Part shown: positions 10,417 through 13,400 of the stretch, piece after piece
How the letters are laid out: the number at the start of each line of letters is the position of its first letter
Position numbering within the stretch: the stretch's first letter is position 1
Source: Escherichia coli
GTDB taxonomy: Bacteria; Pseudomonadota; Gammaproteobacteria; Enterobacterales; Enterobacteriaceae
Length of the DNA stretch: 64,000 nt
Assembly (NCBI RefSeq): GCF_024502345.1
Contig: NZ_JALDNN010000001.1
Reading direction: 5' to 3' (one strand)
Program-made: the position numbers

Positions 10417-13400
10417 TCCACTTAGCGTTGTTACCGTCAATTTTGGTATCAACACCGACCATGATGCCGTTAACATCCTGATCATAGTTGATGGTGCCGT
10501 TGTCGCCGTTGAAGTTACCACCGAAGTAGCTTACCCATGCGCCGCCGTTATCAGCCAGGCCATGACGAGAGTTGGTCAGACGAGTACCAACGGTGTCTTG
10601 TTCCAGGTTCCAGATATTGGTGTTCGCAGACGGGATGCTCAGTGCCATGTTAGCGTAGTCGGTCAGCTCCATCTGTTGCAGAACAACGGTGTTACCGCGC
10701 TGTTCAGCCTGATAGGTGTATGCACCCAGGTCAGCTTTGTTGGCTGCAGAGAAGGTCGCGTTGCTGTTTTTGTCGTTGACGTAGATCAGCTCGTTGCCGT
10801 TGTAGTCAGCGATAGAACCAGCACCAGTAGCGTTGTCGATACGAACTTTGTAGTTACCGGTTGCGGCTGCAACATGGTCACCGTTGTTATCAACTTCGTT
10901 CTGACCAGCTTCGATAGAAGCAGTGTTGTCGTTATCGCCGTTACCGTTAATGGTCAGGTGACCATCAGAGTTCATTGCGATTAAGCCATAACCGTAGTTT
11001 GACTTGGTAGTATCGTTGGTACGGTCGTTGGTCAGGTCTGCATCAAGTACGAAGCGGTTGCTTTCGATGTTGAACACACCAGCGTGAATGTTACCACTGG
11101 TATCAGTAGTGCTGGTCAGGTTCAGAGTATCAACCTGCAGAGCATTCGCCGCAGTGTTACCGACATCCAGAATACCGTCGTTAGTCACTTTGATGTTGTT
11201 GGCATACAGAGCAGCATCACCTACAGCCCAACCAGCAGAAACTTCATCAGAAATGGTTACGGTACTGTTGTCGACAGTCAGTGAATCAGTTGCAACATGA
11301 CCATCTTCGTTGATGTTCAGCGCAGAAAGACCTGTCAGAGAGATAGAGTCAGAAATCAGCGTTGAATCAGCAACATTAACAGTTGAACCACTGTTGATGC
11401 TCAGAGTATCAATCAGAGAAGTTTTGGTGGTGTCCCACTGTGAACCGGTATTCAGGGTCGGTCACATTGAACAGACCGCTCTGGTAAACTTCGTTACCGA
11501 TGATGTGATCAAATTCGCTGTATTCAGAGTCGCTGTTTTCTACGCCAACAGTTGATGAAGGCCACAGGCTGTTAGCTGCGATGTCGATCAGAGTTGCAGT
11601 TGCTTCGGTGCCTGTACTGGTATCAATAACAACCCCGTTATCATTGTAAACAGGACCGTAAGCATCTGGCACACCATCATCATTGGTATCAACAGTTAAG
11701 TGCGCAGACATTGCCGCACCAACCCACTTGCTGCCATTATTCAGGGTCAGATCCAGGCGATCAGTACCATCCCAACCGTTAGTATCTACATCACCGTCAG
11801 CATCACGATAGCTATCACGACCATGCGGGAAGAAGTTCTCATCAAAGTTACTTGAGAAGAATACATCGCCCATCAGTGTGGAATTATCGAATGTTGCAGT
11901 GGTTTGCATTGCGTTATCAGCAGCAGGATGAGCAATAACGGCTAATGCGATATCGTCAGCGTTCCAGCCTTTACCACTATAATCGCTGGCATTACCTGTA
12001 TTACCGAACCAACCAGTAGTACCTTCATCAGTCCATGAACCAGAGGTCACGGTTGAATCTTTAACAGTGATGGTGTTATTAAACACTTCGCTGCTGTTTA
12101 CGCCAGTGCTGACAGTGTTGTCGTCAATATCTTCCCACTCATAACCCTGAGTCAACGTAATACCCGCAACGTGAGAGTTATTAGTGATGGACAGATCAAC
12201 TTCCTGATCCAGAGTAATAGCCGTACCAATGTTGTAAACGTCTACAACATGAGTATCAGCGGCATTATTGTAAGTGCCGTTATATGTGTAGTGTTCGTAG
12301 TTGTCGTCGATCGTTGAATTATCAACAGTCAGCGCCAGACGGTCATGGTAGTAATCATCCGCACGATCAGCACAATCAGTTGTCATGCACTCGGAATAAA
12401 TCATACCGTGAATAGTGCTGTTTTTGATTGTCAGACTATTGGCGTTGGTATTGGTAGAAATACCGTCGTCCAGATAGTAGGTAGAAATCACGCCGTTAAC
12501 GGTAGCGTTATTAATGACCGGGTAGATATCGCCGTTGTAATAGCTATCAGCGGCATAGTTGTTCCAGCCTACATAACCATCATAGTAAACGTCATCAGCA
12601 TAGGTGGCGTCGTTGTAGTAATGGAAAGTATTGTAAGTTTGACCAGAAATATCGTTGGTCGCTGCATTAGCCTGAGAGGTGATAGCCAGAGTGCAAGCCA
12701 ATGCTAATTGTGATACTACAAGTTTCTTTTTCCAGGAGTGCATTTGTCATCCCTCCTCAGGGACATAATAAGTTGATCCATCAATTATCAATGCATAGAA
12801 AACATATTATGTTTCGCGTTGACGATTATGCGGCGTTATAGAGGAATGGTTCAATTATTCTTTCCCCTAAGTCCGATTGCGGACATATATAAAGCACGTG
12901 AACACACACACAGAAATAAATAACAAAAACACAATATTTCAATACGTTAATGAAAGCGTTAATTTTAAAACATAGACCATGAAAATATAAAACAACTAAA
13001 ACAGACAAATAATGTATCAATAAGCAATGAACTTTAAGTTATTCACTTTTTGAAAACGTCACCAAATCCCCAAAAACAATAATCTATGGCTATAAATAAA
13101 AATTAAAAATATTTTCAGTGAATATGAAATTATTGCTATTTCTATTACAAAGATGTCCTGGTCTCTCTTTCATTCTCTTCTTGTCAACATCACGACAACT
13201 TTCGTAAAACACTCCTGCCCCGCTTCAGGTATACTGTGCACCTTAATTCCACAAACATCAGGCAGACCATGACAGACTTAATCCAACGCCCTCGTCGCCT
13301 GCGCAAATCTCCTGCGCTGCGCGCTATGTTTGAAGAGACAACACTTAGCCTTAACGACCTGGTGTTGCCGATCTTTGTTGAAGAAGAAATTGACGACTAC

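Follow-up and report, generated by a model that had tools for sequence, protein, structure and literature searches.

The divergent spacer that separates yaiT (ehaB), an autotransporter adhesin gene, from hemB, which encodes porphobilinogen synthase, raises the question of what so long and so AT-rich a stretch of intergenic DNA does, and for which of its two neighbours it does it. The question is addressed here for an Escherichia coli strain (assembly GCF_024502345.1, contig NZ_JALDNN010000001.1) from which a stretch of 64,000 nucleotides, hereafter the window, was analysed. A sequence-only reading had taken the spacer to be the H-NS-silenced promoter of a surface-protein gene and, given a frameshift, had proposed that yaiT is both transcriptionally silenced and genetically decayed. 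Our analysis makes it very likely that the spacer consists of the control region of yaiT/ehaB and, joined to it, a short promoter for hemB, and that it is subject to silencing of the H-NS type.

Boundaries and composition of the spacer

The yaiT start codon lies at 12743-12741 on the minus strand, where the predicted EhaB product begins MHSWKKKLVV and carries a signal peptide, and the ATG of hemB (13269-14243, plus strand) lies at 13269; the spacer therefore occupies 12744-13268, and its length of 525 bp, as originally reported, is exact when measured from both start codons. The yaiT gene itself (9761-12743, minus strand) is a pseudogene. Relative to an intact EhaB of 993 aa that is 99.5% identical, it carries a 4-bp insertion at 11460-11463 that shifts the frame and brings in a stop after codon 444, and because of this frameshift the gene is dead in the window strain, as the claim of decay had it. 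The insertion is essentially private to the lineage of that strain; in EDL933, for example, ehaB is intact.

The base composition of the spacer is extreme. Its GC content is 0.330, falling to 0.25 in the subregion 12880-13130, as compared to 0.535 for the window, and when the whole 64 kb was scanned only 0.26% of 525-bp windows had a GC content this low; the minimum, 0.316, belongs to a 525-bp window beginning at 12687, which overlaps the spacer. Likewise, the longest stretch of the window with at least 65% AT (12752-13282, ~530 bp) is the spacer itself. Among gaps defined by a crude ORF-based gene call, the spacer is about four times as long as the median gap of 123 bp, and no other gap longer than 50 bp is as poor in GC. 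The description of the spacer as unusually long and AT-rich was thus accurate, its GC being the lowest for its size and far below the window average rather than near it, and the many A/T tracts that had been noted are likewise present, as 14 runs of A or T of at least 4 bases, W-tracts of up to 25 bases, and a frequency of TpA steps of 8.8% versus 4.1% in the window. An AT content far above the genome average, sustained over several hundred base pairs, is one of the characteristics of H-NS-bound promoters.

Other features associated with such promoters, which are supportive and not obligatory, are missing from the spacer. Curvature, which had been suggested as a check, was calculated with our own script of the Bolshoy-Trifonov wedge model and proved unremarkable, at the 82nd percentile and not exceeding composition-matched shuffles. 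AA/TT phasing at 10-11 bp is absent from the spacer, and the high-affinity H-NS motif TCGATAAATT has two matches there with two mismatches each, which is near chance and represents no enrichment. The signal of the spacer is one of composition, with curvature, A-tract phasing and the H-NS motif all unremarkable, and the numbers of promoter-like and terminator-like sites within it do not exceed those of shuffles.

Occupancy and silence at orthologous loci

The K-12 ortholog of the spacer (389728-390250) lies within an extended protein occupancy domain (EPOD) in four conditions as called by IPOD-HR (389715-391350, 389750-391100, 389835-391100 and 389750-391585; PMC8282354 supplements), the domain covering the spacer together with ~0.85-1.3 kb of the 5' part of yaiT. 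Four IPOD peaks fall inside the spacer (PMC8282354 supplements), and those at 390016-390076 and 389896-389956 map to what we term the core of the window spacer (12893-13090). The yaiT region resembles EPODs in being AT-rich, silent and kilobase-scale, and its K-12 ortholog is itself one; the class, however, is defined by occupancy rather than by protein, and the K-12 core is only ~63% identical to that of the window. EPODs high in H-NS make up 72.4% of the class, and about a quarter are not (PMC8282354). Transcription start data agree with silence of yaiT. The sorted plus-strand list of K-12 Cappable-seq starts has no entry between 388394 and 389570 (U00096.2 numbering; PMC4782308 supplement), so that no yaiT-strand start falls within the K-12 spacer (388952-389474, U00096.2), and yaiT itself shows weak intragenic starts only.

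Direct evidence for H-NS comes from Salmonella Typhimurium, whose yaiU gene (seaB, STM0373), like yaiT, points away from hemB and lies upstream of iprA; seaB, yaiU and yaiT are positional orthologs adjoining hemB. H-NS binding to the yaiU promoter was observed by EMSA, ITC (Kd 0.29-0.46 uM) and ChIP-qPCR, and yaiU, termed a previously reported H-NS-repressed gene, shows expression that tracks H-NS occupancy (PMC10657408). The parallel has its bounds, as H-NS binds and represses the Salmonella gene, whereas the E. coli ortholog is known for general protein occupancy and the copy in the window is a pseudogene. H-NS also represses the E. coli autotransporter genes upaC and ehaG/upaG, as well as F9 and cryptic chaperone-usher fimbriae (PMC3966885), and yaiT may be likened to upaC, ehaG/upaG and F9, whose promoters have AT-rich DNA upstream and are silent in laboratory culture. 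A SELEX-based promoter table flags H-NS at the spacer designated yaiU>yaiV and does not include hemB<>yaiT (PMC3946193). We found no paper that mentions both yaiT and H-NS, no hns-mutant or binding experiment on E. coli ehaB/yaiT in the searchable literature, and no mention of the genes of the yaiT locus in the supplements of Higashi 2016. Phenotypes of EhaB and SeaB are visible only when the proteins are overexpressed. Taken together, the K-12 occupancy and the Salmonella binding data support the proposal of an H-NS-type silenced promoter, and the protein that occupies the region in E. coli, the window strain included, is probably H-NS.

Conserved ends and a variable core

To ask which gene the AT-rich DNA belongs to, 80 Enterobacteriaceae loci, one per species, were compared, 46 of them with yaiT and 22 cleanly without both yaiT and iprA. 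In the 46 yaiT-bearing species, which represent many genera, the spacer is 389-626 bp long with a GC of 0.31-0.44, as against 0.54-0.62 for the adjoining hemB. Where yaiT and iprA are missing, ampH lies only 99-164 bp from hemB, with an intervening GC of 0.41-0.62, in 20 of the 22 species; the exceptions are Kluyvera ascorbata (433 bp, GC 0.358) and Atlantibacter hermannii (639 bp, GC 0.513). This pattern of presence and absence across the 80 species ties the AT-rich DNA to the yaiT-iprA module rather than to hemB. The part that does accompany hemB is a putative promoter and leader at 13195-13268 (plus strand), which reads ACTTTCGTAAAACA ... GGTATACT ... TTCCACAAACATCAGGCAGACC and then ATG, with a putative -10 hexamer, TATACT, at 13230-13235 within GGTATACT, and which is conserved in 76 Enterobacteriaceae loci regardless of whether yaiT is present. 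It is therefore very unlikely that the AT-rich region serves mainly hemB, for instance by supplying an UP element, sites for upstream activators or a second promoter. Such a role would fit the 104-bp AT-rich block that adjoins the hemB promoter and is conserved within Escherichia, and a SoxS ChIP-seq peak in the Salmonella hemB<>yaiU spacer (PMC10268841), but it is at odds with the short ampH-hemB distances and with family-wide conservation that is confined to the ~75-80 bp closest to hemB.

At the other end of the spacer, a promoter scan predicts a yaiT -35 hexamer, TTGAAC, at 12849-12854 and, after an 18-nt spacer, a -10 hexamer, CATAAT, at 12825-12830, both on the minus strand. CATAAT was found in all 46 yaiT-bearing species, and TTGAAC, which is invariant or nearly so across 47 sequences, starts exactly 24 nt upstream of it in 45 of the 46, the exception being C. 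amalonaticus ku, which has no exact TTGAAC at that distance. Upstream of the -35 hexamer lies a palindrome, GTCCG-N4-CGGAC (equivalently GTC-N8-GAC), at 12871-12884, ~60 bp from the predicted yaiT start. It is present in 41 of the 46 species and begins exactly 30 nt upstream of TTGAAC in 40 of the 40 that match both motifs, and at its outer positions all 47 sequences compared carry the same G, T, A and C; the perfect form occurs only once in the window, a search for a second copy, for instance upstream of iprA, having found none. A remnant in S. diarizonae retains the same module of palindrome, -35 and -10 as the yaiT of the window.

Conservation extends into the predicted 5' untranslated region (12744-12818, minus strand), whose start site, as predicted from the -10 hexamer, would lie at about 12818 (390176 in K-12), and whose RNA is more stably folded than shuffled versions of it (z = -2.5). 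An 18-nt element, TCCCTGAGGAGGGATGAC (yaiT strand; 12746-12763), shows no difference among 47 sequences that represent more than 15 genera and places the Shine-Dalgarno sequence inside a UCCCU/AGGGA hairpin, the sole hairpin predicted by RNAalifold; because the hairpin is invariant, a covariation test of it is uninformative. A second, near-invariant element on the same strand, TTGATGGATCAAC (12772-12784), would present GGA in a short hairpin loop, for which structural support is weak because the register of the stem shifts between genera, and to regard it as a CsrA-type site would be a guess. The yaiT promoter module as read from these alignments, comprising palindrome, -35, -10 and invariant ribosome-site hairpin, spans genera.

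Between these conserved ends the picture is very different. The AT-rich core (12893-13090, ~198 bp, GC 0.28) is hypervariable within E. coli, its allele classes being 62-76% identical as compared to 97-100% for hemB and the flanking genes. Identity to the window core is at least 95% in 1506 genomes, 80-90% in 386 and 60-80% in 1222, the core being undetectable in ~2300 more, and some E. coli alleles resemble those of another Escherichia species more than they do the other alleles of E. coli. The window-type allele is carried by Nissle 1917, for example, and K-12 and O157 represent other types. Nevertheless, the core measures 195-198 bp with a GC of 0.26-0.30 in every allele, and, although 20-40% of positions are substituted, the whole spacer stays within 522-525 bp in all alleles from Escherichia. 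The block that follows (13091-13194) is 87-100% identical among Escherichia sequences outside E. albertii and is not conserved in other genera; it may mark a boundary, serve in nucleation or belong to hemB as a distal element.

Near-identical flanks around discrete, divergent alleles, as found here for the core, are one hallmark of switched intergenic regions, another being alleles that differ in expression output. Horizontal regulatory switching between E. coli strains was reportedly described by Oren et al. (2014, PNAS), and Thorpe et al. (2018, Piggy) are said to have described switched intergenic regions between such strains. The yaiT spacer is alike in its flanks and alleles and differs in that an internal segment of ~198 bp alone switches, both promoter-proximal ends being conserved, and in that length and composition are preserved. 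Inversion as the origin of the core alleles was considered and rejected, reverse-complement identity between them being 0.39-0.47, at or below chance, as against 0.60-0.82 in the forward orientation.

Two further explanations bear on the core. The first holds that the spacer is functionless filler, an unconstrained sequence at the edge of an ancient iprA-yaiT island that mutation bias has made AT-rich, with incidental H-NS binding and with regulation only in the ~140-bp proximal module. The core is indeed near substitution saturation, with 60-67% identity between E. coli allele classes versus ~51% for shuffled sequence, its transitions roughly equal its transversions, it contains neither a conserved motif nor a specific H-NS motif, and comparison with species in which ampH adjoins hemB shows the iprA-yaiT-spacer module to have been inserted or deleted. 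Against it stand the constancy of length and low GC in every allele through such divergence, the retention by all 46 yaiT-bearing species, from many genera, of a long spacer at 31-44% GC, and the dense protein occupancy of the K-12 region in vivo; we consider this explanation improbable. As a separate matter, mutation bias alone could account for the AT-richness of a spacer free of constraint, in which case H-NS binding would be a consequence and not a selected function.

The least likely of the explanations we considered is a hidden element, which might be a gene encoding an sRNA or a small protein, or else a fimS-like promoter switch, invertible or phase-variable, whose two orientations would give the core alleles. 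Adhesin genes are often phase-variable, as exemplified by the UpaE switch (PMC6083910), the core occurs in discrete and very different alleles, and the window-type allele contains a (CA)5.5 tract at 12901-12912. On the other hand, neither strand of 12000-14000 has a hit to an Rfam covariance model at E <= 1, the K-12 spacer carries no annotated feature, and the small ORFs of the spacer, those of the core included, are disrupted in other alleles or show no protein-level constraint. Nor does the locus have the makings of a fimS/ipuS-type switch, as the inverted repeats are AT-rich and weak (76-78%) and the neighbouring genes are iprA, ampH, hemB and tauD, with no adjacent recombinase gene of the tyrosine or any other type.

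A silencing model and a candidate local regulator

Regardless of how the core alleles arose, the regulatory-region reading favoured here would assemble the parts as follows. Some 350-400 bp of AT-rich DNA, made up of the core and the adjacent block, would lie upstream of a sigma-70 yaiT promoter, TTGAAC-18-CATAAT, with the core probably serving as the main segment for H-NS coating or nucleation. This DNA and the low-GC 5' half of yaiT would be coated by H-NS-type nucleoid proteins, the resulting silent domain, of kilobase scale, shutting off the adhesin promoter during ordinary growth, and hemB would be driven by its own promoter, in the final ~75 bp of the spacer, on the border of this domain.

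The palindrome raises the further question of what might act on the silent promoter. CRP binds TGTGA-N6-TCACA and NtcA binds GTA-N8-TAC, the classical position for a CRP/FNR operator being -61.5. The yaiT palindrome shares with such operators a 14-bp two-fold layout, GTN-N8-NAC, at a fixed distance upstream of the -35 hexamer, and is centred at about -59.5, 2 bp off the classical position; its half-site sequence matches by name no regulator known to us. The likeness may extend to the co-inherited neighbour, iprA (yaiV; 9050-9673, minus strand), which is present in 45 of the 46 yaiT-bearing loci and encodes a winged-helix regulator with a predicted CRP/FNR fold. IprA was recognized by an NCBIfam equivalog match (E 3e-138) and by matches to Pfam HTH_46 and, weakly, to a cNMP-binding domain. 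In a fold search, its predicted structure gave full-length matches to NtcA, CRP, Vfr and CLP at E ~1e-8, the AlphaFold model having been built from a 28-sequence alignment (pLDDT 81.7), as a single-sequence version was unusable (pLDDT 37.5). The palindrome is thus a candidate operator for a CRP/FNR-type regulator, possibly IprA. A more speculative reading, which we put forward tentatively and regard as less likely to be right than wrong, is that the locus constitutes an Enterobacteriaceae-wide cassette for silencing and counter-silencing of yaiT/ehaB, in which a spacer of fixed length and free sequence is coated by H-NS and a dedicated local regulator, IprA, acts at the palindrome; the invariant ribosome-site hairpin may add a translational check.

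The silenced, AT-rich promoter of an adhesin gene, here beside a decayed copy of that gene, is a textbook case of H-NS-type control; the mechanism is an ordinary one and leaves the field unchanged. What sets this locus apart is an unusually clear internal layout, in which control elements that do not vary between genera are set against a segment constrained in length and composition alone. Such a clean split makes the spacer a convenient natural system in which to ask what H-NS silencing requires of DNA. The palindrome, in turn, supplies a testable prediction that links the poorly understood IprA, for which an oxidative-stress phenotype is, to our knowledge, the only one so far, to the neighbouring adhesin gene.

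Composition and segments of the yaiT-hemB spacer

The spacer between the divergent genes yaiT (ehaB, an autotransporter adhesin gene) and hemB spans exactly the 525 bp (12744-13268) that the sequence-only reading had assigned to it, bounded by the minus-strand ORF 11409-12743 and the hemB start at 13269. Its claimed AT-richness was borne out by calculation, with a GC content of 0.330 versus 0.535 for the window, falling to 0.25 in 12880-13130. A GC content this low is reached by just 0.26% of the 525-bp windows, the absolute minimum overlaps the spacer, and no longer stretch of at least 65% AT exists in the window; TpA steps are doubled and, by a crude ORF-based gene call, the spacer has the lowest GC among gaps longer than 50 bp and is roughly four times as long as the median gap. 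In a wedge-model calculation of curvature, a check that had also been suggested, the spacer falls at the 82nd percentile among 525-bp windows, and its value does not exceed that of composition-matched shuffles. AA/TT phasing at 10-11 bp is absent from the spacer, where the proposed high-affinity H-NS motif finds only two matches, each with two mismatches. The signal of the spacer is its composition, and neither curvature nor motif. Further stretches of at least 65% AT over 200 bp lie at 2675-3183, 4597-4796, 42496-42713 and 56711-56956, the first of which, on coordinate arithmetic alone, probably covers the iraP/phoA promoter area.

Ten aligned E. coli alleles, sliding identity to K-12 and O157, and cross-genus footprints divide the spacer into four segments. 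The yaiT-proximal module (12744 to about 12892) is conserved across genera and holds an invariant 18-nt element, TCCCTGAGGAGGGATGAC (12746-12763, minus strand), with the ribosome-binding site inside a hairpin; a near-invariant element, TTGATGGATCAAC; a predicted yaiT -10 (CATAAT, 12825-12830) and -35 (TTGAAC, 12849-12854) set 18 nt apart; and a palindrome, GTCCG-N4-CGGAC (12871-12884), whose start is 30 nt upstream of the -35 in each of the 40 species that match both motifs. Beyond it follow the AT-rich core (12893-13090), an AT-rich block whose conservation does not extend beyond Escherichia (13091-13194), and the hemB promoter and leader (13195-13268). Lying shortly before the yaiT start codon, the 18-nt element does not vary among 47/47 sequences from more than 15 genera, a conservation far beyond the needs of a ribosome-binding site; it is able to fold as a UCCCU/AGGGA hairpin and looks like a CsrA site (AGGGAUGA). 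A perfect palindrome, AAACAT-AAT-ATGTTT (12800-12814, minus strand; roughly positions +4 to +18 in the yaiT transcript as predicted), is kept in Escherichia and Citrobacter, is deleted in Enterobacter and Lelliottia, and might act as an operator or as a hairpin that stabilises the 5' end.

Cross-species distribution and a hypervariable core

A HemB scan yielded 80 Enterobacteriaceae loci, 46 of which carry a divergent yaiT ortholog, accompanied in 45 by iprA (yaiV), a CRP/FNR-fold regulator gene. All 46 possess a spacer of 389-626 bp (median 490) with GC of 0.31-0.44 and a 200-bp minimum of 0.18-0.31, next to a hemB of GC 0.54-0.62. Of the 22 loci where ampH and hemB are cleanly adjacent, with neither yaiT nor iprA, 20 have a gap of 99-164 bp with GC of 0.41-0.62; the gap is longer in Kluyvera ascorbata (433 bp, GC 0.358) and in Atlantibacter hermannii (639 bp, GC 0.513). 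Family-wide conservation upstream of the hemB ATG is confined to the last 75-80 bp or so (ACTTTCGTAAAACA ... GGTATACT ... TTCCACAAACATCAGGCA). Because of this presence/absence pattern and the short hemB-side conservation, the AT-rich DNA is assigned to a yaiT-iprA module rather than to hemB, and service to hemB is a very unlikely role for the spacer beside H-NS-type silencing. The AT-richness itself has been maintained over genus-level time; that it is neutral AT-rich filler is improbable.

Within E. coli, core allele classes are 62-76% identical to each other versus 97-100% for the flanking genes, and the window-type core is nearer to that of E. whittamii (80%) than to other E. coli alleles. 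Blastn matches the window core in only 3,130 of 5,426 genomes, in discrete identity bands (at least 95%, n=1,506; 80-90%, n=386; 60-80%, n=1,222). The most distant alleles are near saturation, given that shuffled sequences align at about 51%; transitions are about as numerous as transversions. Length and composition are nonetheless held, at 195-198 bp and GC 0.26-0.30 in 14/14 Escherichia sequences, and the whole spacer keeps to 522-525 bp across a spread of sampled genomes. Over the first 340 bp of yaiT, O157 and the window agree at 99-100% identity, yet their cores differ, so recombination moves the core separately from the passenger domain. Between the window and its close relatives only 1-2 of the 525 spacer positions differ, so the allelic diversity is old and has been redistributed by recombination; it does not come from ongoing hypermutation. 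An inversion switch as the source of the alleles was tested and ruled out. A (CA)5.5 tract (12901-12912) is confined to the window-type allele, with the same length in the five such alleles examined.

Occupancy and silence at orthologous loci

Gene order (hemB<>yaiT-iprA-ampH) is the same as in K-12, whose 523-bp spacer (389728-390250) contains no annotated feature. In MG1655, IPOD-HR calls an extended protein occupancy domain (EPOD) here in four conditions: 389715-391350 (minimal glucose), 389750-391100 (stationary phase), 389835-391100 and 389750-391585, each call taking in the whole spacer and the first 0.85-1.3 kb of yaiT, with IPOD peaks at 389741-801, 389896-956, 390016-076 and 390176-236 (PMC8282354). 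EPODs are transcriptionally silent, and 72.4% fall in the high-H-NS class (PMC8282354). Cappable-seq records no plus-strand start in the K-12 spacer (388952-389474 in U00096.2), the sorted table passing from 388394 to 389570, and only weak intragenic starts inside yaiT (PMC4782308). A hidden RNA, ORF or switch in the spacer is, beside H-NS-type silencing, the most remote of the alternatives.

The positional ortholog in Salmonella Typhimurium, yaiU (seaB), is termed a previously reported H-NS-repressed gene, and EMSA, ITC (Kd 0.29-0.46 uM) and ChIP-qPCR all show H-NS binding at its promoter (PMC10657408). H-NS repression is also established for other autotransporter and fimbrial genes of E. coli (PMC3966885). 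We infer that H-NS is the occupying protein at the E. coli spacer, and the proposal that the yaiT promoter is H-NS-silenced finds support in the K-12 EPOD, the missing K-12 start and Salmonella yaiU. Probably, a coat of H-NS-type proteins covers both the AT-rich DNA that lies upstream of the yaiT promoter and the 5' half of yaiT, which is low in GC; this would create a silent domain with its edge at the hemB promoter. Such binding needs composition and not a motif, leaving core sequence free, and the retained core length may hold the conserved flanks in register. A second AT-rich patch lies at the iprA 5' end (9394-9602, and the yaiT-iprA gap 9674-9760); its K-12 equivalent (394170-395240) is a separate EPOD, and H-NS is flagged at yaiU>yaiV in a SELEX study.

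Decay of yaiT and a candidate local regulator

The window carries yaiT as a split autotransporter gene, consisting of ORF 11409-12743 (minus strand), which starts with the signal peptide MHSWKKKLVVSQLALACTLAITSQANA, and ORF 9761-11188. The frameshift reported earlier is confirmed as a 4-bp insertion (11460-11463) producing a stop after codon 444, relative to the intact, 99.5% identical 993-aa EhaB of strain AHM8C212RI; among 5,426 complete E. coli genomes, no more than one has this insertion. Loss has been repeated and independent (window 9761-12743; loci L001, L002, L006, L007, L026, L030, L033), through this private insertion in the window, IS3 in K-12, IS2 in FDAARGOS_943 and CPEC24103, a frameshift in ETEC-2264, fragmentation in C. 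amalonaticus S646, and deletions in S. diarizonae and S. arizonae. The passenger domain (10700-12640) is hypervariable, with 45-70% nucleotide identity to K-12, unlike the signal peptide, beta-barrel and flanking genes (97-100%). The closest genome at the spacer, FDAARGOS_943 (99.9%), bears many insertion sequences around the locus (ISEc60, IS5, IS2) and an internal stop in tauA, which is intact in the window; the window strain is related to this genome without being identical.

IprA gives a strong winged-helix and a weak cyclic-nucleotide-binding match, and its model (28 orthologs, pLDDT 81.7) matches NtcA, CRP, Vfr and CLP over the full length (E about 1e-8). GTN-N8-NAC is the operator layout of the CRP/NtcA family, and the palindrome at 12871-12884 fits it, as a single copy with invariant outer bases and with its centre some 60 bp upstream of where yaiT transcription is predicted to start. 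Because of this fold, the layout and conservation of the palindrome, and an IprA recognition region near-invariant across genera, IprA is tentatively predicted to be a local regulator of yaiT. The spacer is a commonplace example of a well-known class of feature, and some of the evidence for this reading was already present in published data sets; what is added is modest, namely a clean tripartite anatomy, a hypervariable core of fixed length and the specific prediction that IprA may regulate its neighbour.
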